A stretch of 64,000 bases of DNA from an uncultured virus (IMG/VR IMGVR_UViG_3300009786_004548). Lineage: Duplodnaviria > Heunggongvirae > Uroviricota > Caudoviricetes. Of the stretch, positions 5,756 to 61,836 are shown piece after piece. A program made the translations under genes and the position numbers. Numbering within the stretch: position 1 is the first letter of the stretch; every line of letters starts with the position of its first letter. The stretch lies in the IMG/VR virus record IMGVR_UViG_3300009786_004548; one strand, 5' to 3'. The notes beneath the pieces were generated by a model. That model saw only the letters and a list, made by a program, of their open reading frames with translations, ran no database searches and was not told where the DNA came from.

Positions 5756-6715
5756 TCAAATACTTAAACTTTCATTCGTCTTGCGGACACTCTCTTCTTG
5801 CCCACACAATTCAGTTGCTGCTCTAACCGCATCAATGTTCTCAGGTATCACATTACTTTCTTGATGTATTGCTTGCAAGTAAAACAATTTATTATCAATA
5901 ACCCCAATGGTTTCTTCCCAAATGCATATCTCCGGCATATCGCCTCGGCTTCTTCCAAGATCTTTAGCATATTCTATGATTTCCGCAGTTGATCTGATTC
6001 CATCAGAACTCTTAACCACACGCAATCTTGTGGTGTTATTAAATAATTCTATCACACTATTGACATCAGTTTTACATTCAAGATCTACTGTAACACTATG
6101 AACGTGCATCACCGTAGTTGGCACAGTCATAGAAGTGGTAAACACATCCATGTCTGAAAGAACGGTTCTAACATCTGGACCATGGTGAGATGGCAGCTTT
6201 AAAATAGGAACAATGGCATTTATCGGGCCATGATATATATCCCAAGGATCAGCAGCACGACGAACTATTGTAGCATGCACTTTTTTAACTCCATACTCAT
6301 TATCAATAGCATGAAGAGTTCTACAAAGCCCCGTAGTATTACAGCTTACTACTCTGATGAAGTCTTCTCCCGCAACATCATCATAATTGCACTGAGCTAC
6401 AAAACTAGCCCCCACATCTGGTTTTTCTCCACCTTGAAATATTGCTTTTAATCCAAATTGTTCATATAATTTCTTATTTTCAAAACCCATCTTCTTAGGC
6501 GCACAGTCTATAACAACATCAGATTTCTCTAACAAAGCAAAATGAGAATTGTCATAAACTGGGAATACACTAATCCCCTTTTTTTCCGCCGACTTTATTT
6601 TATAATTATATCTTTTCGATGTTACTCCGACCAACTCCATGTCATCTTGGAGAATGACAGCATCGGCAACTCTTTTTCCTATTGTTCCATATCCAAATAC
6701 ACCAATTTTAATCAT
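5756..6715 (-). CDS. gap: Type II (archaeal-type) glyceraldehyde-3-phosphate dehydrogenase
   Basis: GYGTIGKRVADAV, QGGEK, catalytic VVSCNTTGL, PSHHGPDV, PENIDAVRA. Confidence 0.93.
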   Translation of the reverse strand: MIKIGVFGYGTIGKRVADAVILQDDMELVGVTSKRYNYKIKSAEKKGISVFPVYDNSHFALLEKSDVVIDCAPKKMGFENKKLYEQFGLKAIFQGGEKPDVGASFVAQCNYDDVAGEDFIRVVSCNTTGLCRTLHAIDNEYGVKKVHATIVRRAADPWDIYHGPINAIVPILKLPSHHGPDVRTVLSDMDVFTTSMTVPTTVMHVHSVTVDLECKTDVNSVIELFNNTTRLRVVKSSDGIRSTAEIIEYAKDLGRSRGDMPEICIWEETIGVIDNKLFYLQAIHQESNVIPENIDAVRAATELCGQEESVRKTNESLSI

Positions 6716-6811: not shown

Positions 6812-7912
6812 CTAACTGAAAACCTGGTTTTCTTGCACCGTAGTTCTAATAAATGTCGTGCATTTACTTAAATCTTTAAGACGATTAGCTCCCACATAGG
6901 CGCAAGCGCTACGAATCCCGCCCAAGATGTCTTTAACAACTAAATCCACAGGTCCTTTATATGGCAACTTTACACACTTTCCTTCTGCCGCACGATATTC
7001 TGCCATGCCGCCATTATACTTCGCCATGGCTTCTTCGCTAGACATTCCATAAAATTTCAAACATTTCTTAACCCATATTACATTGCCTTCTTCATCAGAT
7101 TCTACTGTCGTTTCCATCGGCCACACACTATTATTTGTCAACAATGCTTCTTCTTCCCAGTCCCCTTCCGACTCATCAGTCGCCGCAAGCATGCCGCCCA
7201 ACATTACAAAATCAGCACCACCACTAAATGCTTTCACTACATCCCCTGGCACGGTGCAACCACCATCACTGCATATTAAACCACCAAGACCATGGGCTGC
7301 ATCAGCACATTCAATGACGGCTGATAATTGGGGATATCCCACACCCGTTTTAACTCTAGTAGTGCAAACGCTTCCAGGTCCAATGCCAATTTTAACAATG
7401 TCCGCTGCGCCCGAAAGAAGCAACTCCTGAACCATCTCTGGGGTGACGACATTTCCAGCCATTATTGTCGCATTAGGGCAAACTTCCCTTACCTGCTTAA
7501 CTTTGTCTTGAAAATAATTTGTATAACCATTTGCAACATCTACACAAATGTTTTTTATATCAGAGATTTCTTTAACTTTATTTAATCTTTCAAGATCTCC
7601 ATCTCTTATGCCCATAGTATAAAAAGCATGGTGATTTTGTTCCGTATTAAAAAAATCTACCAACTCGTCTTCTTCATAATGTTTATGCAAACATGTCAAC
7701 ATGCCATGCTCAGAAATAGATTTAGACATTGCCATAGTTCCTGTGGCAATCATGTTTGAGGCAATGATAGGAACGCCCGTCCATTCCTGTCTGGAATTCA
7801 GCATCTTATAAGTTCGTTCTAACTCAACTTTAGAACGACTTGCTGTTTCAGACCTTTTTGGTCGAATAAGAACGTCTTTAAAATCTAGCTTTAATTCATT
7901 AATTATTTGCAT
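6812..7912 (-). CDS. guaC: GMP reductase
   Basis: [37 protein letters not shown]. Confidence 0.95.
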
Positions 7913-13428: not shown

Positions 13429-13704
13429 CTACTCTGCTGTGTCCACAAATATCTTAAACAAATTGCCCGTACCCATCTTGCGTTCTAGCAAATTAATTTT
13501 TTGTCTTTCATTAAACTCGTCCCAACCTTTAGACGTTCGTATTTCCATGGATTCCACCATATCTATATTTTCCATGAAGTCGGCAAATTCTTTACGAAAC
13601 TGAAACTCTAATTCATTTTCGTTAGGTTGACGAAATCCTCGCTGCTCTGCTCGTCCTTTCAAAGATTCCATATCAGGAAATGACATCGGCATAATTATCT
13701 CCAA
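13429..13704 (-). CDS. Hypothetical protein
   Basis: Operon packing. Confidence 0.65.
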   Translation of the reverse strand: MEIIMPMSFPDMESLKGRAEQRGFRQPNENELEFQFRKEFADFMENIDMVESMEIRTSKGWDEFNERQKINLLERKMGTGNLFKIFVDTAE

Positions 13705-14141
13705 AATCTCACACGATAAATAGAACCACTTTTACTCTTACACCAACCATCCGCCACCACGATTGATCCAACAATGCAAGTGCTGACATTTTTATAATTA
13801 CTGGCCCCGCTGACGCCAATTCCCTCAGCAATTGGTGCTGCTGGGACTTTAGCAATCGAATGTATCCCATGGGTCAAAACTCGATGCTTCGCCATTGCCT
13901 CAGCCCTTAGTTGGGCAATGTCTTGCAGAGATAATTTTTTACCATCAAACTTATAACGCTTTTCTGTAGAGTACTTTGTCGGTTTGTATTCTCCATAAGA
14001 CCCACTGTAACTGTAGCTGTAACTTCTGCGTCTTCTAAATATTTGAGCATCTGAAATACTGGTTCCAATAAAAAACAACAACAAGAATGCCAACATACTT
14101 TTTGTTAAGTTACTCATCGCTTCCCTTTCTTTCGAGTTCAA
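13695..14141 (-). CDS. Secreted degenerate CAP/SCP-like protein
   Basis: Signal peptide; AQLRAEAMAK..LTH, AEGIG, terminal G.IY.V strand. Confidence 0.55.
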   Translation of the reverse strand: MNSKEREAMSNLTKSMLAFLLLFFIGTSISDAQIFRRRRSYSYSYSGSYGEYKPTKYSTEKRYKFDGKKLSLQDIAQLRAEAMAKHRVLTHGIHSIAKVPAAPIAEGIGVSGASNYKNVSTCIVGSIVVADGWCKSKSGSIYRVRFWR

Positions 14142-14747: not shown

Positions 14748-14933
14748 TTACCCATTAAGAACAATGCTTGCCGGGTCAAACGGGCGTAATGACCGTTCCG
14801 CTTTAGGAGACTCCTTCGGCTGCACAACCGGACGTATAATCGGGGTAGGTTCGCAAAGAGGAACATGAACACCAAAAGAAAAGGCGCAGCCACTAGAAAA
14901 CAAAAGCGGCAATAACATCAATAACTTTCTCAT
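14748..14933 (-). CDS. Small lipoprotein
   Basis: Lipobox FSSGC; AAGGAG RBS. Confidence 0.7.
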   Translation of the reverse strand: MRKLLMLLPLLFSSGCAFSFGVHVPLCEPTPIIRPVVQPKESPKAERSLRPFDPASIVLNG

Positions 14934-15116: not shown

Positions 15117-16022
15117 TCATCTGGAATAAGTACGATTTCGCAGATCATTACTCTTCAGAAGCCCCTCTATTATAGGAACCATTATCTTTTCATCCTTCAA
15201 AGAGGTTGTAGGCCCTAAAGATATCCACGCAGGAGTAGTTTCAATTCTAAAATTTTTAGTTGCATATCTAATAATTCCATTGTGGTCAATAATACAAGCA
15301 GTAGGCCAAGCTTGAATCTGACATCGCCTTGATATCATCCCATTTGTACCATGAGGGTTAAGGCGAAAGTCGTTTTGTCCAGAATTTATGCCTCCATCCC
15401 AAAAAGATCTCAACATGCCATCCGAAGTTCCAAAACTAGGAATTAAACCGCCCTTAATTCTAGACTTTAACGTGTCTATGTCTTTATCGCTATTTACTCC
15501 TATAATAACAAATGGCTTATCTTTAAATGTTTTAGCGAGCGACCGCTCGTGTGGGTACAAATACCTACAAGGGCCTCACCAATCTCCCCAAAAAACCAAC
15601 ATCACAACATTGCCTCTATAGTCACTGAGGCTAAATGACTCTCCGTCTAAGTCCTTACCGACAATATCAATTCTTCCGCCGGGAAACCTACCTGCAATGG
15701 CAATGCCCAAGTGCCCATATTTAACAATAAACTCCACTTTTTTTCCTTGCCGTTCAACCACCAGCGTAATGCTTTCATTTTTTTGTCGAAGACAAACACT
15801 CTGCGCATCGTCAAACGATCCAAGTGTTGTAATTTTCTGGCCGTTATAACTCACCAACACATCTTTAGCTTGCAACCCAACATCAGAAGCTTGGCTGTCC
15901 GGCTGAACTAAAATTATTTCGCTTTGCAACTGGTTAGGATTTTCTTCTGCCTCAATGGGAGCTAAATCAGCGCAAGAAACAGAACTTAAAAACATTAACA
16001 AAACTATCAAAAATTTCTTCAT
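15117..16022 (-). CDS. Exported PDZ + TlpA/redoxin selenoprotein (Sec at TGA 15576-15578)
   Basis: Two tracked ORFs share a frame: FWGDW-TGA-GPCRYLYPHERSL; cis-Pro motif AWPT downstream. Confidence 0.88.
15536..15549 (-). promoter_or_regulatory. Putative bacterial SECIS apical hairpin
   Basis: CGAGC-GGTC-GCTCG; loop starts with G about 31 nt after the UGA. Confidence 0.65.
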
Positions 16023-16026
16023 TTTA

Positions 16027-16299
16027 CTATTCCGTATAAAAAGTTTCTACATTGTACCCGCCAAAACCATTCTTGGCTCTAAACTTAGCCTGATAACCAA
16101 CTTCGCCACCATTTCGACCCGGTCTAATTAGCTCTTCAGAAATAATTTCTAGACTATCTGGGTCTTTAAGCTGCTCCTTCAGCCGTTGTCGCCCAACATA
16201 CTTAACGGAAAAATCATCAGGCGAACTTGATGTGCTTGATGCATCGCATCCAATTAAACAACATCCAATTAACAATGAAACAAAAATCTTATACATCAT
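16027..16299 (-). CDS. Lipoprotein
   Basis: Lipobox LIGC; LKDPDS...FRAKNGFGGY motif; start reassigned to MMYK. Confidence 0.7.
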   Translation of the reverse strand: MMYKIFVSLLIGCCLIGCDASSTSSSPDDFSVKYVGRQRLKEQLKDPDSLEIISEELIRPGRNGGEVGYQAKFRAKNGFGGYNVETFYTE

Positions 16300-16726
16300 C
16301 TGACCTCTTTCCAAACTTTTTAGTTTTTCTAGATAATTGTGACAACAAAGAACTTCCTTTATTGTCATGACAAGTAATGGCTTTATATGACGACCCTAAT
16401 GAAAGCATAATGAACAAAATTCCTTTTTTCTTATGATGCAAAACACTGTATCTTCCCCTATAACCGTGTTTTTCATAGATGCGTTCCATAAAATGGGGAA
16501 AGTTACGATACGATTTTAATTCAACAGACTCATCAATCAATTTAAATATTTCTTTCCTAACTTTTCTTCCTTTGAAATAAAGGTGTTCTTCAACATCTAG
16601 CATAAGTTCTTTACAACGAGAACAATCCTTTTTGCACTTGTCCAAGTGTTTATATTTTTTTTCTCCACTAAATCTTTCAACATATCTTTGTAACATATGT
16701 TTTGTAAAAAACGGTTTTCCTGACAT
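16289..16726 (-). CDS. Hypothetical basic protein
   Basis: 145-aa ORF with GGAG RBS. Confidence 0.7.
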   Translation of the reverse strand: MSGKPFFTKHMLQRYVERFSGEKKYKHLDKCKKDCSRCKELMLDVEEHLYFKGRKVRKEIFKLIDESVELKSYRNFPHFMERIYEKHGYRGRYSVLHHKKKGILFIMLSLGSSYKAITCHDNKGSSLLSQLSRKTKKFGKRSDDV

Positions 16727-17192: not shown

Positions 17193-17390
17193 TTACTTAG
17201 TATCAGTAGCAGCAGGCTCTTCAGCAGCAGGCTCTTCTTCAGTAGCAGCAGGGGCTTCTTCTCCATTCGTTACGGCAGGAGGATCGACTGCTGCGGGGGT
17301 ATCATCCGAATCCGCATTACAACCAGTCAAAAAGGAAGCAAATGTAACCAACGCCAGCACAGACAATATTCTCATCGTTTCGTTCTCCAT
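17193..17390 (-). CDS. Acidic low-complexity lipoprotein
   Basis: Lipobox LTGC; EEPAA repeats. Confidence 0.75.
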   Translation of the reverse strand: MENETMRILSVLALVTFASFLTGCNADSDDTPAAVDPPAVTNGEEAPAATEEEPAAEEPAATDTK

Positions 17391-18673: not shown

Positions 18674-19945
18674 CTACGCTGCCTCCGCAGAAGCGAAGAT
18701 AGAGTCTTCCCCACGAACTATCTTATCTGTAATAACAAAATGCTTTCCTTTAGTCTTCTGGTCAGGCAATTCATACATCACATCCAACATCACAGATTCA
18801 ACCACTCCACGAATCGCCCTTGCGCCAGTTTTGTTCTGTTTAGCCTTACAAATTATTTCTTTAATAGCATCGTCAGTAAACTCTAAAGTAGCGCCTTCAA
18901 ATTGAAACAACTTTTGATATTGTTTCACAATAGCGTTTTTAGGCTCAGTAATAACTCTGATTAAATCGTCTTCTGTGAGTTCCTTAAGAACACTAATAAC
19001 GGGCAATCTGCCAATCAACTCAGGAATAAAACCAAAACTATGAAGGTCTTCACTAGTCAACTCCCCAGAATCAACCTCAACCTTTTCCGATCTACTAGCG
19101 CCAAAGCCAATAGACTTTTTATCAGTCCTCTTGGCAATAATATCTTCTATCCCTGAAAAAGCACCACCACAAATAAATAAAATATTAGATGTGTCAACTT
19201 GAATATATTGCTGTTCTGGATGTTTCCGGCCTCCTTGCGGGGGAACGTTGGCCGTAGTGCCTTCTAACAGCTTCAAAAGAGACTGCTGAACGCCTTCCCC
19301 ACTAACGTCACGAGTTATTGACACATTATTATTAGTAGAACCAATTTTATCAATTTCATCAATATAAATAATGCCTCTCTGTGCTGCCTCTACATCAAAA
19401 TCAGCAGAATGCAAAAGCTTTAAAACAAGATTTTCTACATCCTCACCAACATACCCCGCTTCGGTTAATGTGGTGGCATCACCAATGGCAAAAGGAACAT
19501 CAAGTTTTTCCGCAAGAGTCTTTGCTAACAAAGTTTTACCACACCCTGTTGGTCCGGTCATCAAAATATTGCTCTTATCAATTATAACATCTTTTAAATC
19601 ATCACTAGGATCACACTTTTCATTACTAATCAATCGCTTGTAATGATTATGAACTGCCACCGCCAAAACTTTTTTGGCGTGATCTTGGCCAATCACATGT
19701 TCATCCAGGTAGCTAACAAGAGCCTTTGGATTAGGCAGCTTAAGTTCATTTGCAGGAACAGCATCTTGTACTTCTGTAGGGTTATTTCTACGAATAATTT
19801 CCACACACGTTTCAACACAATCGGCACAAATATAGACGTTTCCACTTTTATTGTTACCCTCAATCAAAGGGCCTGTTTCTTTGTAGTTTTTCCCACAAAA
19901 ATCACATTGTTTTGTTTGTTTTGGTTGTTTTGTTTTGTCAGACAT
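18674..19945 (-). CDS. clpX: Clp protease ATP-binding subunit ClpX
   Basis: C4 zinc domain, [24 protein letters not shown] and IGF loops. Confidence 0.97.
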
Positions 19946-23203: not shown

Positions 23204-23407
23204 ATGCTCGTTCTTTCAAGAAAAAAAGATGAACAGATAATCCTAAAAGGCGAAAACTTTAAAGACATAAAAATAACTGTCGTAAGAATTGACAACTACA
23301 ACAAGGTTCGCATTGGAATAGAGGCAGACCAAGGAGTTTCTATTTTAAGATCTGAGTTAGAAGAAAGATCCGAGTTAGAAAAAAAGCCTACTCCAACAAA
23401 TCGCTAA
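23204..23407 (+). CDS. csrA: Carbon storage regulator CsrA/RsmA
   Basis: MLVLSRK..E.I, VRIGIEA, ILRSEL. Confidence 0.93.
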   Translation: MLVLSRKKDEQIILKGENFKDIKITVVRIDNYNKVRIGIEADQGVSILRSELEERSELEKKPTPTNR

Positions 23408-24359
23408 TAGAACCACCTTCTTCGTGCGTTCTTCGAATTGCTTGAGAAAACATTCGTGAAGTTGAAATAATTTTTAAGTTAGAACACCCTTCAAACCGAA
23501 ATGGCGCAACGGTATCAGTAACAATAATGCGTTCAAAATTTTCTAAATTGTTTGTTGCTTCACCAACAAACAATCCATGAGTGGCACATGCTCCCCACAC
23601 TCTCCCGCCATTTTTTTCAACCGCTTTCTTGCATTCTTTTAAAGTGCCGCCAGTAGAAATAATATCATCTACAATGACGACATCCTTTTTTTCTACGTCT
23701 CCTATTATATTAAAACCTTCCACTTTATCAAAAGTCCTAACCTTATCCAGATAAGACAAACCAACGTCTATTCCTAATCTTTTGCCAAGGGACTTCCTAA
23801 ATCTCATGGCTCTGGTCATTCCTCCCGCATCAGGAGAAAGAACCACTAAATCAGATTCTACATTAATCTGGGCAGAAACATAGTCAGCCAATAAATTTTT
23901 AGCTTCTAATGTGTCAGTTTGAATTCTAAATCCATTCTGAAACGCTGACAGGTTGTGAACATCCATCGTCACTAAACGATTGCAACCCACAGATTCCAAT
24001 AGTATAGCAACATATTTGGCGGTAATCGGGGCACGACTCTCCGTTTTTCTATCTTGTCTAGAAAAACCCAAATAAGGCACCACCGCCGTTATTCTACGTG
24101 CAGAGGCATCAACTAGGGAACCGATAAAAAATAAAAGTTTAGCAAATTTTTCACTAACAGACTCTTCCTCATCGCTATAAAGCGATTGGATCACGTAAAC
24201 ATCACATCCCCTGACGTTTACGTCTGACCGCAAATAAGGCTCTTTATCATCAAAGTAAAATTCAACATGCTTAGAAAGAGGGACATCTAAAAATTCAGAC
24301 ACTCGCCCTGAAAACTCACGACTATCATTCAGTCCGAATAAACGAAATGTACTATCCAT
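23388..24359 (-). CDS. prs: Ribose-phosphate pyrophosphokinase
   Basis: PYLGFSRQDRK, MDVH, SPDAGG, VDDIISTGGT, ATHG. Confidence 0.95.
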   Translation of the reverse strand: MDSTFRLFGLNDSREFSGRVSEFLDVPLSKHVEFYFDDKEPYLRSDVNVRGCDVYVIQSLYSDEEESVSEKFAKLLFFIGSLVDASARRITAVVPYLGFSRQDRKTESRAPITAKYVAILLESVGCNRLVTMDVHNLSAFQNGFRIQTDTLEAKNLLADYVSAQINVESDLVVLSPDAGGMTRAMRFRKSLGKRLGIDVGLSYLDKVRTFDKVEGFNIIGDVEKKDVVIVDDIISTGGTLKECKKAVEKNGGRVWGACATHGLFVGEATNNLENFERIIVTDTVAPFRFEGCSNLKIISTSRMFSQAIRRTHEEGGSISDLLE

Positions 24360-31071: not shown

Positions 31072-31818
31072 TTAAGAAAATGATTTAATATCGGCAACAC
31101 ATTTTTCTCTATTTTTTTTCATAACCTCTATTATCCCATCCACATGTTTGGTAGTAGCATTTCCCTCATGCCAAATCCAACTCTTTGCACATATGGCTTG
31201 CTTAAATCCATATCTTTTCATCCTATAATAAAACTCCTCATCCTCGTATCCGGCATAAGGATATGATTTTATAAACCCATTAACATTAGAAAACAATTCT
31301 CTATGACACAAGGCAGAATATAAAGGAACAAAAGTATCATCTAAAATAACATCTTCAACATGATCATCTATTTTCCCCTCAAGCCTTTTGTCGCCAATTT
31401 GAGGATTGTTAGACCTAGAAGAAACCAATTTGACTCCTTCGTCTTTAAGATTAGACATTGTCTGCATTAAAGCAATTAACCATTGTGAATTTTCAACAAC
31501 ACAATCTGAATGGACAAAACACAGCCACGGAGATTTACTATTTTCAAAACCAATTTTTAATGCGCCACCAAATCCAACTCGCTCATCCGTCCTGACCGCT
31601 GTGATGTACGGAACGGGATTAAAATCTGAAACAAAATTCTTATCAGCAGATGCGTCATCTACCAATATGAACCTAATTCGGTTGCTTTTAACATTTACAA
31701 TTATACTATCGACTAAACGAGCAACTTTGCTTTGTTGATTATGGAAAGGTATTATTATATCTACATTAGAATTGAAAAACGCATAGTGCTTTACAGGGTT
31801 TGGCTTTGAAGTTTTCAC
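31072..31818 (-). CDS. Glycosyltransferase family 2
   Basis: IIIP, LVDDAS, HSDC, YEDEEF. Confidence 0.88.
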   Translation of the reverse strand: MKTSKPNPVKHYAFFNSNVDIIIPFHNQQSKVARLVDSIIVNVKSNRIRFILVDDASADKNFVSDFNPVPYITAVRTDERVGFGGALKIGFENSKSPWLCFVHSDCVVENSQWLIALMQTMSNLKDEGVKLVSSRSNNPQIGDKRLEGKIDDHVEDVILDDTFVPLYSALCHRELFSNVNGFIKSYPYAGYEDEEFYYRMKRYGFKQAICAKSWIWHEGNATTKHVDGIIEVMKKNREKCVADIKSFS

Positions 31819-33276: not shown

Positions 33277-34863
33277 TTAATAATCCTCTAAAATAGAATA
33301 AGCACCATTTCTTCCACTTAGACCTGTGACTCCTCCGCCAGGGTGAGTAGCCGCTCCGCACATATACAAGCCCTCAATAGGAGTTCTATAATCACAATAA
33401 CCAGACACAGGTCTAAAACAATAAATTTGATTGGCCGACATAGCACCCTGAAAAATATTCCCCCCCGTCAGACCATATTTTTTTTCTAAATCTACAGGGG
33501 TTAAAACTTGTTTATGAAGAATCAAGTCCTTAATGTTAGGAGCATAATCTCCAACAGTTTCAATACAAGTATTAAACAAAGCATCTTTGTTCTTATTATT
33601 CCATCCTCCCGACAATTTATAAGGAGCATATTGAATAAAAATCGACATAATATGCTTGCCCTCAGGGGCAATAGTTTTATCTACCATAGAAGGAATGGTT
33701 ATTTCCAACACAGGTTTTCGACTGAATTTTCCTTGTTTTGAATCCGAAAAAGCATCTTCAATATAAGAAACAGATGGGGATATATGAATTGTTCCATTTA
33801 AACAACTAATATCTCTACTTTTTCCGGCTGTGAACTCCGGCACCCCACTTAAAGCCAAATTCACTTTAGCTGACGCTGACGAATAATCAATTCTATTGAC
33901 AGCATTAAAAAACCCATCCGGCAAGGGAGCATCTATTAATTTGTTAAAAGTTAAATTTGCATCGACAGAAGAAGCAACTACATTGGTCTCAAAATAACCA
34001 TTGTCTGTCAAAACCGCCTCTACTTTTGAATTTTTAACTACTATTTGTCTAACTTCGGTCTCTTTTACGAATTCTACTCCGTAATTAATACAACACCTTT
34101 CCAAAGAATCCGCTAATCCTCCCATTCCTCCCTCTACATAGCCCCAGACGCCTCTCTGACCGCCTGCATTGCCCATAACATGGTGTAGAAGAACATATGC
34201 ACTTCCTGCGTCTGAGGGGGACATGTGGGCGCCTATGACGGCGTCTGTGGCCAGCGTAGCTTTAAGAACATCGCTTTCAAACCATTCGTCCAAAAGATCC
34301 ATTGCGCTACCGTTCATCAGTCTAATAGCATCTAGTGAAGCAAGTTTTTTGACCGCACGAGCAGATCTAGATAACCTAACTATATTTCTAATTTTATTTT
34401 TTACACTAAGCTTTCTCCACGGAGAAGGAAGCACCGGAGGGGATTTCTCCATAAGAGGCTCAAGAACCTTTGCCACATCCGTAAGATATTTTTCATATTC
34501 TTTATATCTTATTGCATCTTTGACACTAAATGACCCTATCTCTTCTATATTCCCTTTTTCATCATGCCCTAAGACCAAAGACTTCCCATTCGACAAAGGC
34601 GTAAAAGAAGAAGGATTGCGAGGAAGAATTTTAAAGCCATATTTCTTTAAATCCAAACTCTTAATTATTTTCGAAGAAAATAAACTAATGACATAGGCAG
34701 CGGGCGACACCTTGAATCCAGGCCAAAGTTCTTCAGTAGAACAGCACCCTCCCAACACGTCGCTTTTTTCAATGACACATACTTTGAGTTTCTTCTTTGC
34801 TAAAAACGCCGCAGCAACCAAACCATTGTGACCACCACCAATTATGATTACATCGTATTTCAT
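33277..34863 (-). CDS. Phytoene-dehydrogenase-like FAD oxidoreductase
   Basis: GGGHNGL, GGMG, GLYMCGAATHPGGGVTG. Confidence 0.9.
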   Translation of the reverse strand: MKYDVIIIGGGHNGLVAAAFLAKKKLKVCVIEKSDVLGGCCSTEELWPGFKVSPAAYVISLFSSKIIKSLDLKKYGFKILPRNPSSFTPLSNGKSLVLGHDEKGNIEEIGSFSVKDAIRYKEYEKYLTDVAKVLEPLMEKSPPVLPSPWRKLSVKNKIRNIVRLSRSARAVKKLASLDAIRLMNGSAMDLLDEWFESDVLKATLATDAVIGAHMSPSDAGSAYVLLHHVMGNAGGQRGVWGYVEGGMGGLADSLERCCINYGVEFVKETEVRQIVVKNSKVEAVLTDNGYFETNVVASSVDANLTFNKLIDAPLPDGFFNAVNRIDYSSASAKVNLALSGVPEFTAGKSRDISCLNGTIHISPSVSYIEDAFSDSKQGKFSRKPVLEITIPSMVDKTIAPEGKHIMSIFIQYAPYKLSGGWNNKNKDALFNTCIETVGDYAPNIKDLILHKQVLTPVDLEKKYGLTGGNIFQGAMSANQIYCFRPVSGYCDYRTPIEGLYMCGAATHPGGGVTGLSGRNGAYSILEDY

Positions 34864-41191: not shown

Positions 41192-41711
41192 TGTGTGAGC
41201 GGAGTTCCAACCAACAATTTTCGATGATTGTTGACCCCATCAAAACTATGAATTTTGTTTGTTCAACTGTTAGTTCTACAAAGCGGTTCGACGACTCCTC
41301 ATAGCATTTTCCTTCGGCGTAACTCAATCTCAATTCTTCTGGACTAATATCATCATACATACCGGCCATTTGTGAAAAGTAGCTTGCCTTACACTCGATC
41401 TCGTCGTCCGACGATATCCACGGCTCACACTCAAGTGCAATATCCATCAATAATCTGTATAAGTTATTAAACTCATTAAGATATTTAGACGCTTCATAAG
41501 AGGCATCAATAGCGGAGGCAGCTTCCCATCTGCAAAATCCTTTGTCGTTCAGGCTGCCCAGCGCTTTGCCGAATTCGTTCCAAACAGTGTTCTGAGCTTC
41601 CTCATCATATGCCGACGAGACACACGGCTTCGACAAGGTACCAAGAAATGCTGATCGTAAGAAGAACTCATTGTACATTGTCCACGCTTCATCTTTATCT
41701 AAAATATTCAT
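41169..41711 (-). CDS. Acidic hypothetical protein
   Basis: 180 aa; AAGGAAG RBS. Confidence 0.7.
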   Translation of the reverse strand: MNILDKDEAWTMYNEFFLRSAFLGTLSKPCVSSAYDEEAQNTVWNEFGKALGSLNDKGFCRWEAASAIDASYEASKYLNEFNNLYRLLMDIALECEPWISSDDEIECKASYFSQMAGMYDDISPEELRLSYAEGKCYEESSNRFVELTVEQTKFIVLMGSTIIENCWLELRSHNEGKEEL

Positions 41712-41890
41712 TAAAATTCTTCCTTGATTTTAAGCCAGTCGTTTCAATAAACTCAACACAATATATCCGCTTATCAAAGTTCAATGTGGACTTAATAATG
41801 TATTATCCAACTTAATAACGTATTATTGGGTTTGACACCGCATTTCTCGACTTTTGCAATGATCACAAATAATGCTTTATTCGGAATCAA

Positions 41891-42421
41891 TCATTTAGTT
41901 TTACCAACCACGACACACCAAAAGGCGTCTCCCTGTCTGGTCTTGGCAAATCCCACACCAATTTCTTTGTAGTTTCCTAAAATAGTCTTCCTATGTCCGG
42001 TGCTGTTCATCCACCCCCTAACAATAATAACAGAATTAAAACGACCCGGACCAGAACGTGGTGCGCCATGAGCTATTATCTCGCCAACATAATCGTTGGC
42101 CTTGGGATTCGCTAAAACATCTACTTGTAAATAACCATACTTAACAGCCCGATTAATTGGATGCCAAGTAGACTTACTCCACACTTCCCGTGTATTAATT
42201 TTTGGCTTTTGTCCCTCAAGATGAACCATCCGATAATTATTTGCCATCCAATTCGCATGATGCTGGGCGGCGTGCGACAACTTGCTATTGGGAACAAAGG
42301 CAGAAAGATTAGATCTGTTGCGATAACTGTTGATCTGAGATATTGTCGCATTGCTAACATCCTGCGCTTGCGACACAGAAGCAAAAAAAAGAATGACCCA
42401 AACAATTAGCAATCTTCGCAT
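41891..42421 (-). CDS. Secreted CAP/SCP-domain protein
   Basis: IN.YR, AAQHHANWM, GEIIA, WMNSTGHR, IGVG. Confidence 0.9.
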   Translation of the reverse strand: MRRLLIVWVILFFASVSQAQDVSNATISQINSYRNRSNLSAFVPNSKLSHAAQHHANWMANNYRMVHLEGQKPKINTREVWSKSTWHPINRAVKYGYLQVDVLANPKANDYVGEIIAHGAPRSGPGRFNSVIIVRGWMNSTGHRKTILGNYKEIGVGFAKTRQGDAFWCVVVGKTK

Positions 42422-42474
42422 ATCAATTTCCTTTATTCCAATGATGTTCTCGACATCTTATTCATCTCCTTCAG

Positions 42475-43035
42475 CTAAAAATGGAAACGCTTGTCGCCAT
42501 TCAGTCTTTGTCGCCCAACATGCTTAATGGAAAAATCATCAGGCGCACTTTTGAAACTTTTCCTTAATTTACTTAAAGCTTTACCACACGTTTGACTAAT
42601 TGCGGCTCTGGTTACTCCCAACCGACGACCAATCGACGCAAACGTCTCCCCCTCAAGATAATGACTAACAATCACATCTTTGTTTCTTCCTTCTAAACCA
42701 GAAAGCAATTTCTTAATATCAACATTGTCCTCTTTAATAACTTTTCCTTCTAAATCATTAATTTCATCTATAACTAAAAAATGTTGATTGATTCTATTTC
42801 TTTTCCTGATGCCATTAATGATAGCATTGTTCATGCAACGATAAGCATATGTGGAAAACTTAGCTCCTAAATCAGGATTGTAATTTTCGTTGGCCTGTAT
42901 AAGTCCTATACAAGCATCGGAAAATTCATCACTATCTTTAACTGGCTGGCCGTTCTTTACATACCCATAGGCCACCTTGAGAGCTAATTTCAAATTAGAC
43001 TCAACACCAATGTTGTTTTCGGCGGGTAATATCAT
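42475..43035 (-). CDS. Small sigma-70-family factor, paralog 2
   Basis: EFSDACIGLIQA..NYNP..GAKFSTYAY; IGRRLGVTRAAISQ; start set to MILPA. Confidence 0.88.
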   Translation of the reverse strand: MILPAENNIGVESNLKLALKVAYGYVKNGQPVKDSDEFSDACIGLIQANENYNPDLGAKFSTYAYRCMNNAIINGIRKRNRINQHFLVIDEINDLEGKVIKEDNVDIKKLLSGLEGRNKDVIVSHYLEGETFASIGRRLGVTRAAISQTCGKALSKLRKSFKSAPDDFSIKHVGRQRLNGDKRFHF

Positions 43036-43218
43036 GCAATCGCTCTCTGCGCAAAAGTACAAGGCGGCGAAAGTGCCGTCCTGTGCTTCTTTCGAAATCC
43101 TTTTAAGGAAATCACGCCTTCATCGAGACAAATCCGCCACCATGCTCATCGATCTCTTCAAAACGAATCCAGCAGTCCTCCGCTGGCATCTTGAAAACAA
43201 AGTTTTTCAGACAATTAA

Positions 43219-49223: not shown

Positions 49224-50252
49224 ATGGAAAAAACCAAATTATCTAAAACTGCGCAGCAATTGGTGTCTCTAGGAAAAGGAATCCTTGCGGCAGACGAAAG
49301 CACCCCGACCATAACCAAAAGATTTAAGTCCATTAATACCGGATCAACGCATGAATTAAGAAGGGCCTATAGAAATATTCTTTTTACAACAGAAGGGCTA
49401 GAGCAGTACATCAGTGGCGTCATCATGTATGATGAAACTATAAATCAGAAAACATTTGACGGAACTCCATTTCCTAAATATCTATCAAATAAAGGAATCT
49501 TGACCGGAATAAAAGTAGACAAAGGCGCAAAAGAAATGGCCCAACACGAAAGAGAAACATTAACAGAAGGCTTAGACGGATTAAGAGAAAGGTTAAAAGA
49601 ATACAAAAGACTTGGCGCCTCATTCACCAAATGGAGAGCAGTTATCTCCGTAGGAAAAGAAATCCCGTCTTACACCTGTATTCGTGAAAACGCCATAAAT
49701 TTAGCTCGTTTTGCAGCAATGTCCCAAGAATGTGGATTAGTGCCAATTGTCGAACCAGAAGTTCTCATGGACGGCAATCAAAATGTTGACCAATCTCTTG
49801 AAATAACAGAAAAAGTATTAAAAAACACGTTTTCAGAACTACACTTTTTAAATGTGTTTTTAGAAGGAATGATTTTAAAATGCAACATGGTTCTAGAAGG
49901 ATACAACAGTCTCAATGCTGACATTACAGGAAGAGAAGTTGCAGAAAAAACTTTAAAATGTATATCTAGAACCGTCCCCCCAGCCGTACCAGGCATAGCC
50001 TTTTTATCAGGCGGACAAAGCTTCGAAGACGCCACAAAACATCTTAATCTCTTAAACAAGTTAATCATTCCAGGCATAGGGAAATGGCCTTGGCGATTAT
50101 CATTTTCTTATGGACGTGCCCTGCAACAACCTGCGTTACAAGCGTGGGGCGGAGACATGGAGTTAAGAACTGTTAAAAAAGCACAGGCTGCCTTGCTCCA
50201 CAGAGCCAAATGCAATTCAGAAGCCGCAATGGGAGTCTATCGATCTACTTAA
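49224..50252 (+). CDS. Class I fructose-bisphosphate aldolase
   Basis: GKGILAADES, KVDKG, KWRAV, PIVEPEV, FLSGGQ, FSYGRALQ. Confidence 0.96.
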   Translation: MEKTKLSKTAQQLVSLGKGILAADESTPTITKRFKSINTGSTHELRRAYRNILFTTEGLEQYISGVIMYDETINQKTFDGTPFPKYLSNKGILTGIKVDKGAKEMAQHERETLTEGLDGLRERLKEYKRLGASFTKWRAVISVGKEIPSYTCIRENAINLARFAAMSQECGLVPIVEPEVLMDGNQNVDQSLEITEKVLKNTFSELHFLNVFLEGMILKCNMVLEGYNSLNADITGREVAEKTLKCISRTVPPAVPGIAFLSGGQSFEDATKHLNLLNKLIIPGIGKWPWRLSFSYGRALQQPALQAWGGDMELRTVKKAQAALLHRAKCNSEAAMGVYRST

Positions 50253-50504: not shown

Positions 50505-53500
50505 TTACAAATATGTATCAAGCAAGGCAGATGACTCCGCCGTTGCTACCTCCCCGGTTTGGGAATCTTCTGGAGGAAGTATATGTCCCAGATCCACTTC
50601 AATAAACGCAGTTGAAGTCGTAACTTTCTCTTCTATTTTTAACTCTAAAGGATGTTCCTTCCAATAATTTCCGACAAATAACCGAATATCATCATTTATT
50701 ATAGTATCAACAACAAAACTACTAGAAGCCGCTGACGAGGCTGTCACCGTGGTTATTTTACTTTGTGTATCAATTTCAAATGATGCATCAAGTCTTTGTC
50801 CTCTACTACAAAAATGACCTTTTGGAAACACCAAAACGACTCTAGTATCTTTATCTACTTCCGGCTCATGGTGATAGTGAACTAGAAGAGAAAACTTCCA
50901 CGCATCATAGCCAAGATCATTAGATCCTATCTCAGGAATGCAAGACCATTCAAAAAGAACATCAAAAATTTCTTCACCAGAAATACTTTCATAGTGAAAA
51001 TTATTTCTCCAAGAACCCGTAATAGAATTATAAATCAATTTAATATCGACTGGAAGGGTAAAAGCATTCCTTTGTATAAACTTCCCAAGTTTAGAGGCAT
51101 GCAATAAATTATGTTTTAAATTAACCATAGCATTAACAGGGTCGCATCCACACAAATTAACCACATCAGGAAGATCGACAACATGTTCCGGGGCCTCGCC
51201 TGTACCAAAAAATACATCAAAACCAGAATAAGTAACATCATATTTAACTGACGTGGTCAAATCCTCAAAATACCCAGACACTCCGCCAGTAGTATCAATG
51301 TGGGAGGTTCCTGACAATGTCGCACCACCAGAACCAACATAACTATAAGAAGAAGATTCTCCGAGTATGGCCTCCCCAGAAATAGTAATCCCTCCCGAAC
51401 TAACATAGTTCCTAAAAGGAACACCGGCAATTGCAGAGCCGCCTATTGTCGCACCTATCTTCAAATGATAAATAGACATTTCAACATAATCTATAAGAGC
51501 AGAAACCGACCCGGCAGCAGAAGAAGGCAAGTCATTCTTTGCAGAAAGAACTACTCCAAAAGTAGAATCATTTATATCGTCATAAGTTAAATCAAGACCC
51601 CAAGTGTCAAACGGAGGCCAATCGATACCGGGTACCGGCGTGTCGTTATCATCAAAACCATATTCTACAAAAGCAGGATCATAATAAGTTATTTCTAGAA
51701 AAGCTGACCCAGTTCCAGACTGATTTTGTCCAAAAGCACGAAATTGAATTTCCCAATCACTTCCAGCACTTGATGGGTCTCTAAAATAAACCACCATTGC
51801 GGAGTCAGGATGCGTCCACCCATCACGATCCACTATCTCTTGAATTACACTAGAAATATCGGGAGTCTCTATGAAATTTCCACTTTGAGTATTATCAAAT
51901 GTCCAAGTCACATTAGATGTAGTGGGAACGGCCCCCGTAACTGCATGTGCAGTCAGGGGCAGACCGGCGTCATCAGAAGCGTTGGCACAAATTTTCGCAG
52001 TTTGCCCATTTGCATTGGTATTCCCATCAACTAGAAGTGTTATCTTAGCAGAAGTAATTTTAGCATCACTAGGAATATTGACATCCACAAATCTCATGAA
52101 GCTTTGGCTATCGTAGGCAGCAGTGTGCGACACCGAATGCGTTGTGTTCGTACTGTTGAACGCATACGAGCCATTAGCAAGTAATTTTACCGATCCATCA
52201 TTTTGATAATTGGAAACACTTTCATCAATAGATGTAATCACTCCCCACGGTGGCGGAGAATACAGCCAGTTATTAGCAGCAGGGAGAATTTTATCATCTC
52301 CTTGAACAGTACCATCTTTAACCAACTTAATTGATTCATCTTTAATACTATCGCCACCTGTCTGGTGTTTATCAACAAGAACTCTCACGCCCATAATCGT
52401 ATCAACAGATGGAATACTAAAACCAAAATTAGTAGATTTTAAGTATTTAGAAATAACTCCTGCCGACAAAACAACAGAAGCATCCTGTCCATCATTTGAT
52501 GAGGCTGAGGAAGGAGAAGTCCAATCAACGGTTCCCACAGTTGCGTCACTAACAAATGTAGAAGCAGATTCAACAGATGTAGTAACATCATTTCCTATAA
52601 CATTAAACCTTGGATAATACTCTCCCCCTAAAGAAATCCCGCCAGTGGCGGAATATGTCCATGATGGCGAGGCTACGTATACTTCTCCCGACATAACGGG
52701 TCCGCCAACTCCCGCATATAAATAAACAGTTGAATTAAATGGAAGAGAAGTGCCTCCCAACTCTAGTGGCACAAGGCCAACATAATTTGATATAAAAGCA
52801 CCGGCCAAGCCGCCAAGACTAATTCCTCCACTTGGTATGATACGAAGCAAAATGCGAGGATTGGCAGTCCAATGTTCATCAAGCGACCCAGAAGACTGAA
52901 TGCCGCCCGAACCAGAAAAAGAATATGCAGTAGATACCACATCATACACCCCTCCTAGTGCCATACCTCCTTCAATTGGGTTGTCTACACCACCACTAAA
53001 ATCTGTTTTCGACATACCAACGTCACCACTATCTGTCAAAGAAACAGTAGTGTTGCCCACTGTTCCTTTAGTAGATTGTGTGATTGTTACAACGGCATTA
53101 TTTGCTGCCGCTGAAAAATTGGCGTTTGCATTAATAAAAATTGCCAAAGCAGAAGCAGCTTCATTATTTGAAGCACCTAAATCCCAACTTCCATCAGAAC
53201 CACCAGTAAAATCTGTTTTAGACATACCAGCGTCACCACTGTCTGTCAAAGAAACAGTAGTGTTCCCCGCTACGCTGCCAATAGATTGTGTGATTGTTAC
53301 GACCGCATTATTTGCTGAAGCTGAGAAATTAGAATTTGCATTAACAAAGATCGCTAAAGCAGCAGCGGCATCAGCGTTTGAACTACCAACATCCCAGTCC
53401 CCGTCAACACCACCAGTAAAGTCCGTTTTAGACATACCAGAGTTACCACTATCTGTTAAAACAACCGTAGTGTTCCCCGCTGCTCCTTCAATAGATTGCG

Positions 53501-54158
53501 TGATTGTTACAACCGTATTATTTGCTGAAGCTGAGAAATTAGAATTTGCATTAATAAGATTTGCCAACGCAGAAGCGATGTAGCTCTCAGCATGTGTGCC
53601 CCAGGCAATATCAAAATCAATATCTACGCTTGGAGCGTTTGTCGCTCGCAAAGTCACCTTGTCTCCAGCATTAAGTTCAGCATAATCGGTTATTGTGACT
53701 GTGGCGGTTGCAGCAACATCAGAATCTACAGCAAAATCAATGTCTGTGCTCGGAGCACTTGTTGATCGTAAAGCGACCTTATCTCCATCATTCAGTTCGG
53801 CATAGTCAGTTATAGTGACTGTGGATGTGGCTGAGGTATCGAGATCTACAGCAAAATCAATATCTATACTTGGGGCACTTGCTGATCGTAAAGTGACCTT
53901 ATCTCCAGTGCCAAGTTCAATCTTATCAATTATAGTAACTGTGGTGGTTGCTGGGCGTGGAGAATAATATCTTGGAGTAAAACTGGATACTACGATGGAT
54001 TCCCCAGAAATAACCGGAGACGCAGTGCCCTGGTACGATTGTGCCGACGAAACTATTGTCGCCTGTCCTTCTACAACAACTCCATCAATCCCAACATAGT
54101 TACCATGAGGACGGGCAATTACAGCAACGGCGCTGCCTCCTAAATTCATATGCGCCAT
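50505..54158 (-). CDS. Large virion structural/adhesin-like protein (1217 aa)
   Basis: G/S/T-rich beta repeats, nested triplicated domain, carbohydrate-binding-like segment (MRF...IPSDAKITSAKITL). Confidence 0.75.
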   Translation of the reverse strand: MAHMNLGGSAVAVIARPHGNYVGIDGVVVEGQATIVSSAQSYQGTASPVISGESIVVSSFTPRYYSPRPATTTVTIIDKIELGTGDKVTLRSASAPSIDIDFAVDLDTSATSTVTITDYAELNDGDKVALRSTSAPSTDIDFAVDSDVAATATVTITDYAELNAGDKVTLRATNAPSVDIDFDIAWGTHAESYIASALANLINANSNFSASANNTVVTITQSIEGAAGNTTVVLTDSGNSGMSKTDFTGGVDGDWDVGSSNADAAAALAIFVNANSNFSASANNAVVTITQSIGSVAGNTTVSLTDSGDAGMSKTDFTGGSDGSWDLGASNNEAASALAIFINANANFSAAANNAVVTITQSTKGTVGNTTVSLTDSGDVGMSKTDFSGGVDNPIEGGMALGGVYDVVSTAYSFSGSGGIQSSGSLDEHWTANPRILLRIIPSGGISLGGLAGAFISNYVGLVPLELGGTSLPFNSTVYLYAGVGGPVMSGEVYVASPSWTYSATGGISLGGEYYPRFNVIGNDVTTSVESASTFVSDATVGTVDWTSPSSASSNDGQDASVVLSAGVISKYLKSTNFGFSIPSVDTIMGVRVLVDKHQTGGDSIKDESIKLVKDGTVQGDDKILPAANNWLYSPPPWGVITSIDESVSNYQNDGSVKLLANGSYAFNSTNTTHSVSHTAAYDSQSFMRFVDVNIPSDAKITSAKITLLVDGNTNANGQTAKICANASDDAGLPLTAHAVTGAVPTTSNVTWTFDNTQSGNFIETPDISSVIQEIVDRDGWTHPDSAMVVYFRDPSSAGSDWEIQFRAFGQNQSGTGSAFLEITYYDPAFVEYGFDDNDTPVPGIDWPPFDTWGLDLTYDDINDSTFGVVLSAKNDLPSSAAGSVSALIDYVEMSIYHLKIGATIGGSAIAGVPFRNYVSSGGITISGEAILGESSSYSYVGSGGATLSGTSHIDTTGGVSGYFEDLTTSVKYDVTYSGFDVFFGTGEAPEHVVDLPDVVNLCGCDPVNAMVNLKHNLLHASKLGKFIQRNAFTLPVDIKLIYNSITGSWRNNFHYESISGEEIFDVLFEWSCIPEIGSNDLGYDAWKFSLLVHYHHEPEVDKDTRVVLVFPKGHFCSRGQRLDASFEIDTQSKITTVTASSAASSSFVVDTIINDDIRLFVGNYWKEHPLELKIEEKVTTSTAFIEVDLGHILPPEDSQTGEVATAESSALLDTYL

Positions 54159-59140: not shown

Positions 59141-59621
59141 AAAAATCAGTGTAATTAATGCTAGACTCTACATCATTTTGTCTTTGTTTCACTTCATCAA
59201 TTATTTCTTGCGGAACTTGCGGGGACTCAAACCCATGTTGCCTATTCATTAAATAACTAATCACAGCTTCTTTAAAAAGCTTAATCTCTTCTTCAGAAGA
59301 AAAAAAAGACTCATCAGTAACTTTTAGTGTACTAGTAGAATAATCCATATAAGCAAATACTGTAAAATCCACACCATCCTTTTCACACTCAATAAATAAA
59401 GGTATTACATTATCCACCTTTTTAATTTTTAAATCTCCAGGACGAACTATGGGCTTACTAGACTCGCCCAAATGCACCTCGCTGGAATATCTAAAAGCAT
59501 TTTTCCAAACATCTTCCTTACTATCAACATCTTCCTTACTATCAACATCTTCCTTACTATCAACATCTTCCTTACTATCAACATCTTCCTTACTATCAAC
59601 TTTTTTTTCTTTATTGTCCAT
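59109..59621 (-). CDS. Acidic hypothetical protein with VDSKED repeats
   Basis: 170-aa ORF. Confidence 0.7.
   Translation of the reverse strand: MDNKEKKVDSKEDVDSKEDVDSKEDVDSKEDVDSKEDVWKNAFRYSSEVHLGESSKPIVRPGDLKIKKVDNVIPLFIECEKDGVDFTVFAYMDYSTSTLKVTDESFFSSEEEIKLFKEAVISYLMNRQHGFESPQVPQEIIDEVKQRQNDVESSINYTDFFGSEKDGGSK
59509..59600. repeat. 18-bp perfect tandem repeat x5
   Basis: acatcttccttactatca. Confidence 0.95.
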
Positions 59622-60888: not shown

Positions 60889-61836
60889 TTATTCTAATTT
60901 AGAAAGTTCAATCAAAATCTTCTCATACTTTTCATTTATTTTTTTAGGAACCTCCAAAACAACGTCTACTATAAGATCTCCCACTCCCCCATGACGAGCA
61001 TCAGGAAAACCAAGACCCTTGAGTCTAAATTTAGTTCTATTCGCAGTCCCGGCAGGAACATTGATGGACACCTTTCCGCTATTCAATGTGGGGATTTCTA
61101 ATTTGTCTCCTAATACCAATTGAGTGTAAGAAACAGGTACATCCAAAATCAAATTCTTATTATCTCTAAAAAAAATAGGATGATTTTCTACATTAACAGT
61201 TAAATAGAGATCGCCATTTGTTTCTTTCCCAATATTTCCTTGACCCTTAACCTTAAGTTTAGACCCTTCCAGAATTCCTTTAGGGATACTGACACTAATT
61301 GAGCGATCATCTAATAAAAATTCACCTTTAGAGTCGCATTTAGAACAAACCCCTTTTCTCATAACCCCTACGCCCACACAATCAGGGCAAGTAACCTGCA
61401 TTAAAAATGGCGGATTCGATACCTGTACCAGCCCTTTTCCTTTGCAAGAAAAACACGCCAAACATTCCTCCGCACCATGTCCGTTACACTTATCACAAAA
61501 ATTTGCTCTCTTATAAGTTACTTCTTTTTTACATCCAAAAAAAACATCATTTAAAGAAATGGTGATTTCAGAAGAAACATCTCTACCACGAACACTAATA
61601 TCACTCCACGAAGAATAAAAGGGATTCCCAACATGGGAACCCCTTTTATCATATTTCAACCGCCTGTCCGGGTCGCCCAAAACATGATGCGCTTCATTTA
61701 CTTGCTTGAATTGATCAACAGCATCAAAATCTTTATTTGTATCAGGATGATACTTTCTTGCTAACGTGCGATACGCAGACTTGATTTCATCAAAAGTTGC
61801 TTCTTTTGAAACCCCAAGAACTTCATAATGATCCAT
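60889..61836 (-). CDS. dnaJ: DnaJ co-chaperone
   Basis: J domain with HPD, four CxxC zinc repeats, C-terminal domain. Confidence 0.93.
   Translation of the reverse strand: MDHYEVLGVSKEATFDEIKSAYRTLARKYHPDTNKDFDAVDQFKQVNEAHHVLGDPDRRLKYDKRGSHVGNPFYSSWSDISVRGRDVSSEITISLNDVFFGCKKEVTYKRANFCDKCNGHGAEECLACFSCKGKGLVQVSNPPFLMQVTCPDCVGVGVMRKGVCSKCDSKGEFLLDDRSISVSIPKGILEGSKLKVKGQGNIGKETNGDLYLTVNVENHPIFFRDNKNLILDVPVSYTQLVLGDKLEIPTLNSGKVSINVPAGTANRTKFRLKGLGFPDARHGGVGDLIVDVVLEVPKKINEKYEKILIELSKLE

Follow-up and report, generated by a model that had tools for sequence, protein, structure and literature searches.

A probable selenocysteine-containing PDZ-redoxin gene carried by a large marine phage

Selenocysteine (Sec) recoding is known from cells and from two poxviruses. 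Among bacterial selenoproteins, two catalogued families with a UxxC motif, the "Prx-like thiol:disulfide oxidoreductase" and the "thiol:disulfide interchange protein", were represented by 8 and 3 sequences, respectively, in 2006, and the former by 32 sequences in 28 organisms in 2016, with bacteria the only carriers named (PMC1794560, PMC5029168). The viral cases are glutathione peroxidases, GPx1-like in molluscum contagiosum virus and GPx4-like in fowlpox virus (PMC8310308). In a marine survey, sequences of viral origin were few or absent among the selenoprotein families (PMC9402790), and a report on huge phages contains tRNA-Sec calls accompanied by speculation on selenoproteins (PMC10747093). 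A search of the full-text literature, whose coverage leaves out subscription journals and unindexed papers, returned no phage-encoded selenoprotein. Here we describe a gene on the minus strand (16022..15117) of a 64,000-nucleotide stretch of DNA from an uncultured virus of the Caudoviricetes (IMG/VR record IMGVR_UViG_3300009786_004548; the whole stretch is hereafter called the window) which is very probably a selenoprotein gene of a large marine phage. Its protein family and decoding mechanism are of known kinds, and it is the carrier that is new.

The gene is conventionally seen as two open reading frames (ORFs), an upstream one at 16022..15576 (148 aa, ending in ...VFWGDW) and a downstream one at 15560..15117 (147 aa, with a TTG start), both on the minus strand. 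They constitute a single frame of 301 codons plus a terminator, the sole interruption of which is a TGA at 15578..15576, codon 149; readthrough yields FWGDW-TGA-GPCRYLYPHE and a product of 301 residues (...VMLVFWGDW-U-GPCRYLYPHERSLAK...). The true terminator at 15117..15119 is also TGA, as it is in all four phage-lineage genes (those of the window and of loci L003, L004 and L005, each read end to end), and no hairpin follows it. An earlier note, made from the window's letters and ORFs, had described this frame, had placed the TGA at the first Cys of a thioredoxin motif and a CGAGC-GGTC-GCTCG hairpin with its loop about 31 nt downstream, and had taken the product for a probable exported PDZ-redoxin of the UxxC selenoprotein type with a hairpin resembling a selenocysteine insertion sequence (SECIS). 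The frame and the hairpin are as it described them, and the reading as a phage selenoprotein is supported by Sec/Cys pairing, the conserved TGA, purifying selection and an invariant hairpin that, over 60 family members, goes together with the TGA. We put at roughly 0.8 the probability that the gene product is a single exported protein, 301 residues long and made up of a signal peptide, a PDZ domain and a TlpA/ResA-like domain with Sec as its active-site residue.

At the N-terminus, residues 1-18 (MKKFLIVLLMFLSSVSCA; 15969..16022, minus strand) form a predicted signal peptide, read from the sequence on the basis of two Lys, a 10-residue hydrophobic core and small residues; a signal-like N-terminus of differing sequence (MRKLLMVWVVLFFAPVLQAQD) is kept in L005, and such N-termini are likewise found in the bacterial homologues. 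The product is probably exported. Downstream lies a PDZ domain (residues 36-101; 15720..15917), which Pfam PDZ_6 matches over residues 38-91 (E 1.3e-7, 31.7 bits against a cut-off of 27), with PDZ_2 scoring 24.7 bits on the same region, under its cut-off of 27. The TlpA/ResA-like thioredoxin-fold redoxin domain (residues 119-256; 15255..15668) is matched by Pfam AhpC-TSA (residues 119-182, E 3.6e-14, 53.2 bits against 26) and Redoxin (residues 124-256, E 6.6e-12, 45.9 bits against 26.6), as well as by PDB and Foldseek entries, and since it crosses the TGA neither half holds a complete thioredoxin fold. The TGA, the proposed Sec codon, corresponds to residue 149 of the U-G-P-C motif, and the second (resolving) residue of UxxC, Cys152, is encoded by TGT at 15567..15569 and occupies an invariant column of the family alignment. 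In an AF2 model the redoxin part is usable (pLDDT 74-90); the PDZ part is poor (pLDDT <56) and no structural claim is therefore placed on it.

The PDB sequence matches are to DsbE/ResA/TlpA proteins, the WCGPC of 3gl3 aligning to W-U-GPC, and the best Foldseek matches are ResA, CcmG, TlpA and Etrx (TM on target 0.68-0.79). ResA, TlpA, CcmG (DsbE) and pneumococcal Etrx, all extracytoplasmic thiol-disulfide reductases, have the same fold and the same position of the WCxxC-type motif. Scores against the NCBIfam equivalog models lie far below their cut-offs (ResA 51.6 of 170, TlpA 40.1 of 230 and DsbE 26.4 of 123 bits). The gene product thus appears to share the fold and the likely chemistry of ResA/TlpA/DsbE, yet is not an orthologue of them. 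It differs from these proteins, and from Cys-type TlpA-like phage genes such as Bacteroides phage BS-TP3 gp63 and that of Lentisphaerae phage WC36-1, in having the proposed Sec in place of Cys and a PDZ fusion. GenBank phages gave four weak matches among 50,697 records, and the three examined are Cys forms (WCGPC or WCEPC). The NCBIfam selenoprotein models WAxxUGC_long (NF041054) and Trx7/PDZ (seleno)protein (NF041199) score 29.6 and 26.6 bits, respectively, against cut-offs of 300, the latter on the PDZ part only. The catalogued bacterial families resemble the phage gene, a likeness drawn by description only, as thioredoxin-fold (PF00578/PF08534) oxidoreductases with a UxxC motif and an in-ORF bacterial SECIS, and differ from it in the absence of any viral entry. 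The poxvirus GPx genes are likewise host-derived viral selenoprotein genes served by host Sec machinery, that of fowlpox even with its SECIS in the coding region (PMC8310308); they differ in belonging to eukaryotic viruses, with a eukaryotic SECIS/SBP2 system and a GPx product, whereas the phage gene would pair a bacterial-type SelB hairpin with a TlpA-like redoxin.

The assignment of Sec to the interrupted codon is suggested by its homologues: Cys occupies the column in each of the seven full-length homologues that extend across it (WCPDC, WCGPC, WCPYC or WCAAC). Where a fetched family member has a stop at this column, it is TGA in every case (60 members). Further, four database proteins of 174-177 aa begin directly past the motif (MYPHERSLV), and following them led to bacterial loci in three metagenome-assembled genomes (MAGs), namely a Pirellulales MAG with two copies, a Limisphaerales MAG and an unclassified MAG, all of which read FWGxW-TGA-[GP]PC. 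In a six-frame search the phage domain matches 191 of 401 Planctomycetota genomes at E<=1e-10, and exactly one TGA is present in all but 6 of about 150 places among the matches listed. A single genome may hold up to 8 family matches, with tandem paralogues seen in L006, L016 and L018. At E<=1e-20 the family is found in 67 of the 401 Planctomycetota genomes by table count, and in 1 of 301 Verrucomicrobiota genomes, this being the already known Limisphaerales. The stop-free Planctomycetota homologues have Cys at the column in five of six cases and Trp (TGG) in the sixth. This last, a paralogue at L048 (G260:C11:71214-72026), reads FWGNW-W-GPC and has lost the hairpin, and may be a Sec-to-Trp decay product of the redoxin family.

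Taken as a group, the Planctomycetota loci (L016-L045 and L058-L077) make up a very large family of exported redoxins with FWGxW-U-[GP]PC and an invariant hairpin, CACGAGC-GGUC-GCUCGUG, at a fixed offset. The phage gene has the same redoxin domain (up to 63% identity), the same Sec column and YPHERSL stretch, and an identical hairpin core at the same offset, and both kinds of protein carry an N-terminal signal-like peptide. They differ in that the bacterial proteins are mostly about 350-475 aa long (268 aa in L007), with an N-domain lacking a Pfam match and no PDZ; the phage domain, for its part, lies on a long branch, is extended at its C-terminus and contains two insertions. In a tree of 59 rows, limited to rows that have the motif and at least 85 residues beyond it, the four phage genes form a clade with 100/100 support and a stem branch of 1.41, inside a poorly resolved Planctomycetota radiation; the sister of this clade is unsupported (83/24). 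Two split "thiol-disulfide isomerase-like thioredoxin" Sec candidates of planctomycete P1, published in 2016 and entered as "SECIS present: no" (PMC4807772, S9 Table), may be compared with this family by description only.

The TGA itself is retained in all five related metagenome loci, two of them identical to the window and three at 85, 85 and 70% identity, and these three diverged relatives all read TGA GGC CCN TGT at the site. It is not a sequencing error, since the gene is unchanged in two other assemblies and the codon persists in the three divergent loci. Among 27 short database proteins inspected, all 15 N-terminal pieces from relatives stop at ...FWG[DE]W and 11 of the 12 C-terminal pieces begin at [LM]Y[PS]HERSLAK; the relatives in the protein database are annotated throughout as two hypothetical proteins. 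In the window, TGA ends 13 of the 67 long ORFs, as compared with 15 for TAG and 39 for TAA. It is hence an ordinary stop, and a global reassignment of TGA (codes 4 or 25) was rejected as an account of the in-frame codon. Estimates of dN/dS (Nei-Gojobori) over the six pairs of the four phage-lineage genes are 0.21-0.43 downstream of the TGA and 0.16-0.66 upstream. The downstream values indicate that the C-terminal half is translated and under purifying selection; relaxed selection there was among the outcomes that the earlier note would have counted as a refutation. There is no further stop or frameshift in the four genes, despite dS of up to 0.7-0.8.

A further line of evidence is the hairpin CGAGC-GGTC-GCTCG at 15549..15536 (minus strand), proposed as a SECIS core, in which a 5-bp stem (CGAGC/GCUCG) beginning 26 nt past the TGA closes a GGUC loop (15544..15541) that begins 31 nt past the last TGA base. 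The form [C/U]GAGC-GGUC-GCU[C/U]G is present in 53 of 60 TGA-bearing members, including four distinct phage-lineage genes, always at an offset of exactly 29 nt from the U of the UGA, and in none of the five TGC/TGG (Cys/Trp) members (L047 was excluded from this set by the motif filter). In the seven TGA members without it, HEKTL, HEKEM or HEKAL replaces HERSL and other stem-loops are predicted nearby. The codons of the hairpin, CAC GAG CGG TCG CTC, are invariant in 39 of 40 rows (entropy 0-0.17 bits), and equally conserved neighbouring residues show codon entropies of 1.81 (Pro+8), 1.95 (Pro+21), 1.83 (Gly+26) and 1.58 bits (Ser+29). With the hairpin codons fixed and neighbouring synonymous sites free, a constraint at the RNA level, beyond that on the protein, is indicated. 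In the window these codons are rare (CGG 5% of Arg, TCG 9% of Ser, CTC 4% of Leu), and the probability of this spelling of H-E-R-S-L under the window's codon usage is 1.3e-5; codons of the gene outside the hairpin have drifted to be AT-rich like the window (37.4% GC). The 14-mer occurs once in the window and in none of 100 shuffles, and so exceeds chance expectation. Only two stem variants were seen, UGAGC in L005 and GCUUG in the second copy of L006, both preserving the pairing through G.U. When the first 15 nt after the UGA are held unpaired, as an assumed ribosome footprint with the UGA in the A site, the hairpin reaches a probability of 0.91-0.95 in three of the genes (window, L003 and L004) and of 0.54 in L005. 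The loop lies at a distance from the UGA that falls within the range of bSECISearch, which we take to be 16-37 nt. In the Escherichia coli fdhF SECIS the loop reads GGUC. According to PMC8659212, the apical loop of the E. coli element has G23 and U24 as its fixed bases, and SelB contacts U17 and G23; the phage GGUC loop contains G-U. In both systems a stem-loop inside the ORF follows closely on the UGA and presents G and U in its apical loop.

Several features of this hairpin weigh against its identification as a SECIS. The phage stem has 5 bp (-6.2 to -7.3 kcal/mol) and the bacterial one 7 bp (CACGAGC/GCUCGUG, -10.5), the former being shorter because the hairpin is followed by Ala GCT where the bacterial form has Val GTG. 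In the naked 60-nt phage RNA the minimum free energy structure is an alternative long stem (-13.5 kcal/mol) pairing nt 4-12 with nt 29-38, and the pair probability of the hairpin is 0.02, or 0.12-0.94, depending on the strain, in 70 nt; the fold z-scores are unremarkable (-0.4 to -1.7). Thermodynamic folding by itself fails to single the hairpin out. The stem begins 26 nt past the UGA (24 nt in the bacterial form), as against 11 nt in E. coli fdhF (PMC8659212), and it is shorter than the latter and has no bulged U. True covariation is absent: there are no double compensatory changes in the stem, only two G.U-compatible single changes. No Rfam SECIS family matches in the vicinity of the gene at a threshold as loose as E<=10, and tRNA-Glu alone reaches its gathering score. 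Two points on other grounds belong on the same side of the balance. The stretch 15518-15591, which includes the TGA and the hairpin, is spanned by no contig from three RNA-library runs and one DNA run; contigs of these four runs are 100% identical over parts of both gene halves, the shares of the RNA runs being small, and as RNA libraries can contain DNA such matches are no proof of transcription. Additionally, the case for Sec machinery in the phage's own host is drawn from other carriers of the same hairpin.

In those carriers the machinery is present. All three bacterial genomes (G002, G003 and G004) have selB and selA above the NCBIfam cut-offs and a tRNA-Sec scoring 71.5, 70.8 and 47.0 bits, the last exactly at the cut-off. 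The phage seems to bring none of its own: SelA, SelB and SelD are absent among the 67 window ORFs, tRNA-Glu is the sole tRNA of the window, and an 85-kb record of the same genome (G001) yielded neither selB nor tRNA-Sec, its extra 52.5 kb having not been searched for selA and selD. This is in keeping with the earlier note's proposal that the virus would depend on SelA/B/C/D of its host. The same note's suggestion that a PDZ-only product might serve as a selenium-dependent switch found no such backing. L005 has no PDZ before its TGA, and in P0072, a 119-aa N-terminal piece from a 1331-bp metagenome contig, a Tudor-knot-like domain (PF11717) replaces the PDZ before ...VMLVFWGEW and the stop. With the N-terminal modules varying, and the UGA, the hairpin and the redoxin domain as the conserved parts, the switch is unsupported.

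Of the alternatives, the one that retains most weight, although we consider it unlikely, is that the UGA is read through without Sec, either by near-cognate insertion of Trp, Cys or Arg or by a phage UGA suppressor tRNA encoded in the unseen part of the genome. About 116 kb of a genome estimated at roughly 500 kb has been seen, a bacterial paralogue (L048) has Trp at the site, and the hairpin of the phage, itself short, faces a competing fold. However, the codon stands at the catalytic Cys position, and the hairpin is held in common with bacteria that own SelA and SelB and would have no role in plain readthrough. Further, the only tRNA of the window is tRNA-Glu and G001 has no tRNA-Sec match, and a general suppressor would be costly given that TGA ends 13 of 67 ORFs, this gene included.

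A different question is whether the DNA is viral at all. G001 represents the same genome, with 99.997% identity over window positions 31161-64000 (32.8 kb); it contains no homologue of the gene because the record ends at window position 31161, short of it. Its extra 52.5 kb encode a head maturation protease (phrog_94, 3e-22), a head closure protein (phrog_218, 2e-22), UvsX, a split PolB (phrog_405), thymidylate synthase, DHFR, a dNMP kinase and members of several large phage-only PHROG families. CheckV gives the 85-kb record as 17% complete, which suggests a genome of some hundreds of kb (about 500 kb). The flanks of L001 and L002 are identical to the window and those of L003 and L004 keep synteny for 4-6 kb at 80-91% identity, all four loci with TGA-bearing orthologues of the gene; a 238-kb contig carries an identical C-terminal piece, and the whole stretch was recovered in at least five DNA runs from different studies. 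The gene is thus supported as phage-carried. No further viral relative was found in IMG/VR by protein, by alignment or by a TGA-plus-hairpin DNA pattern, in searches from which the window's own genome was possibly excluded.

The redoxin also occurs at a second locus. A PDZ-less Sec redoxin of 205 aa, with U at residue 63, is encoded at L005:579-1193 in a related genome whose flanks there match window 41424-43036, beside a sigma-factor gene equivalent to 42475-43062, and the redoxin copy is preceded by a 39-nt fragment that matches window 16124-16162. This location and the fragment imply that the cassette has moved or been duplicated within phage genomes. As for the host, the ClpX protein of the phage matches phage relatives at 87-100%, a 731-aa sequence at 65% over 61% of the query, and cellular proteins at 59-63%; all 22 named cellular matches are from Planctomycetota, two of the names having been verified in the taxonomy. 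Because the phage redoxin clade falls inside the Planctomycetota radiation, the Verrucomicrobiota sample has the family in one genome and the named cellular ClpX matches are planctomycete, a Planctomycetota host is a reasonable inference, short of a demonstration. We regard it as likely that a huge marine phage, probably infecting Planctomycetota, took over a Sec redoxin from its host along with the SECIS inside the ORF, and has kept the UGA and the GC-rich hairpin under selection across strains, two loci and three architectures.

Against this stands the view that the gene is not viral and represents Planctomycetota chromosomal DNA, mis-binned or chimerically assembled. Its closest homologues are bacterial, the window has many cellular-type genes (GAPDH, FBA, ClpX and DnaJ among them), and neither a terminase nor a major capsid gene was identified in the 116 kb of phage seen (the 64-kb window plus the 52.5 kb extra in G001), which is a point to be set against our interpretation as well. 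We nonetheless hold this view to be very improbable. Apart from the hairpin, the gene follows the window (37% GC) in its AT-rich codons; the flanks recur in L001-L004, identical in L001 and L002 and syntenic in L003 and L004, and the stretch is found whole in runs of different studies; the phage clade has its own long branch; and the adjoining DNA carries head-module and T4-like replication genes.

Less credible still is the proposal that the TGA is a real stop in a decaying or split gene, which would make a PDZ protein and leave an untranslated or separately started remnant. Gene callers do give two ORFs in every relative, and a TTG or ATG occurs just past the motif. The remnant would, however, be evolving under purifying selection no worse than that upstream, without any other stop or frameshift in the four phage-lineage genes, and the stop would have stayed at a single codon throughout 60 family members and in relatives as distant as about 61% identity, with neither half a whole fold. 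That the gene is an intact Sec gene left undecoded in an actual host lacking the Sec system, as a recent functionless passenger, might be entertained as the family was matched in no more than 191 of the 401 Planctomycetota genomes at E<=1e-10, and is scarcely tenable in view of the long divergence since acquisition, the purifying selection downstream of the TGA, and the retention of the TGA and of a rare-codon hairpin in four diverged phage copies at two positions with three N-terminal architectures.

Under the preferred interpretation as a phage selenoprotein, host ribosomes would translate the phage mRNA during infection, and on arrival of the UGA in the A site host SelB with Sec-tRNA(Sec), supplied by host SelA, SelD and selC, would bind the GGUC-loop hairpin 26 nt downstream, such that Sec is inserted and no termination occurs. 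The phage would have acquired the redoxin domain and its in-ORF SECIS from the exported Sec redoxins of Planctomycetota and fused the captured domain to N-terminal modules of its own, with the UGA and the GC-rich SECIS core held against an AT-rich composition. The product is most likely an extracytoplasmic, Sec-dependent disulfide reductase acting on envelope or periplasmic targets, for which the PDZ domain perhaps recruits substrates.

If correct, this would be the first phage case found, and would mean that phages exploit SelB/SECIS recoding, tying infection to a trace element and to the Sec trait of the host, with phage gene expression and part of phage fitness dependent on host recoding and selenium supply. 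An in-ORF SECIS, which must fit the SelB of the host, could then serve as a sequence marker for host assignment. In viral catalogues such genes are split into two by gene callers. Independent of the phage, the large Planctomycetota Sec-redoxin family with its one invariant hairpin of 14-18 nt offers a compact candidate SECIS for the study of planctomycete SelB specificity.

A few observations concern the surroundings of the gene. The neighbouring ORFs 13695-14141, 14748-14933, 16027-16368 and 17193-17390 (minus strand) have signal-peptide- or lipobox-like N-termini (...LLIGCCLIGC, ...LFSSGCAF), which suggests that the selenoprotein gene lies within a cluster of exported phage proteins. At L003:3554-4497, the gene is separated from the next shared gene by about 940 nt that have no match at the corresponding place of the window and look like an insertion relative to it. 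A second selenoprotein gene in the window was considered and rejected, the sole other TGA-split frame being antisense to the PhoH gene. Besides PhoH, the window encodes two ECF-type sigma factors, an HNH endonuclease and many cellular-type genes. Those with strong NCBIfam scores are a type II (archaeal-type) GAPDH (5756-6715), GMP reductase (6812-7912), ClpX (18674-19945), PRPP synthetase (23388-24359), a CrtO-like carotenoid ketolase/desaturase (33277-34863), class I fructose-bisphosphate aldolase (49224-50252) and DnaJ (60889-61836), and the presence of two glycolytic enzymes within one phage is unusual. In G001 the family-B DNA polymerase is split into L054:9288-10634 and L054:13542-16052, about 2.9 kb apart, with a 406-aa ORF on the opposite strand between the halves, which points to a possible mobile insertion in the polymerase gene. 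Lastly, two internal repeats occur in the window: within the 1217-aa ORF 50505-54158, at 52989-53577, about 380 nt recur at an offset of 210 nt (82.7% identity), and near 59508-59600 there is a short tandem repeat whose offset is 36 nt.

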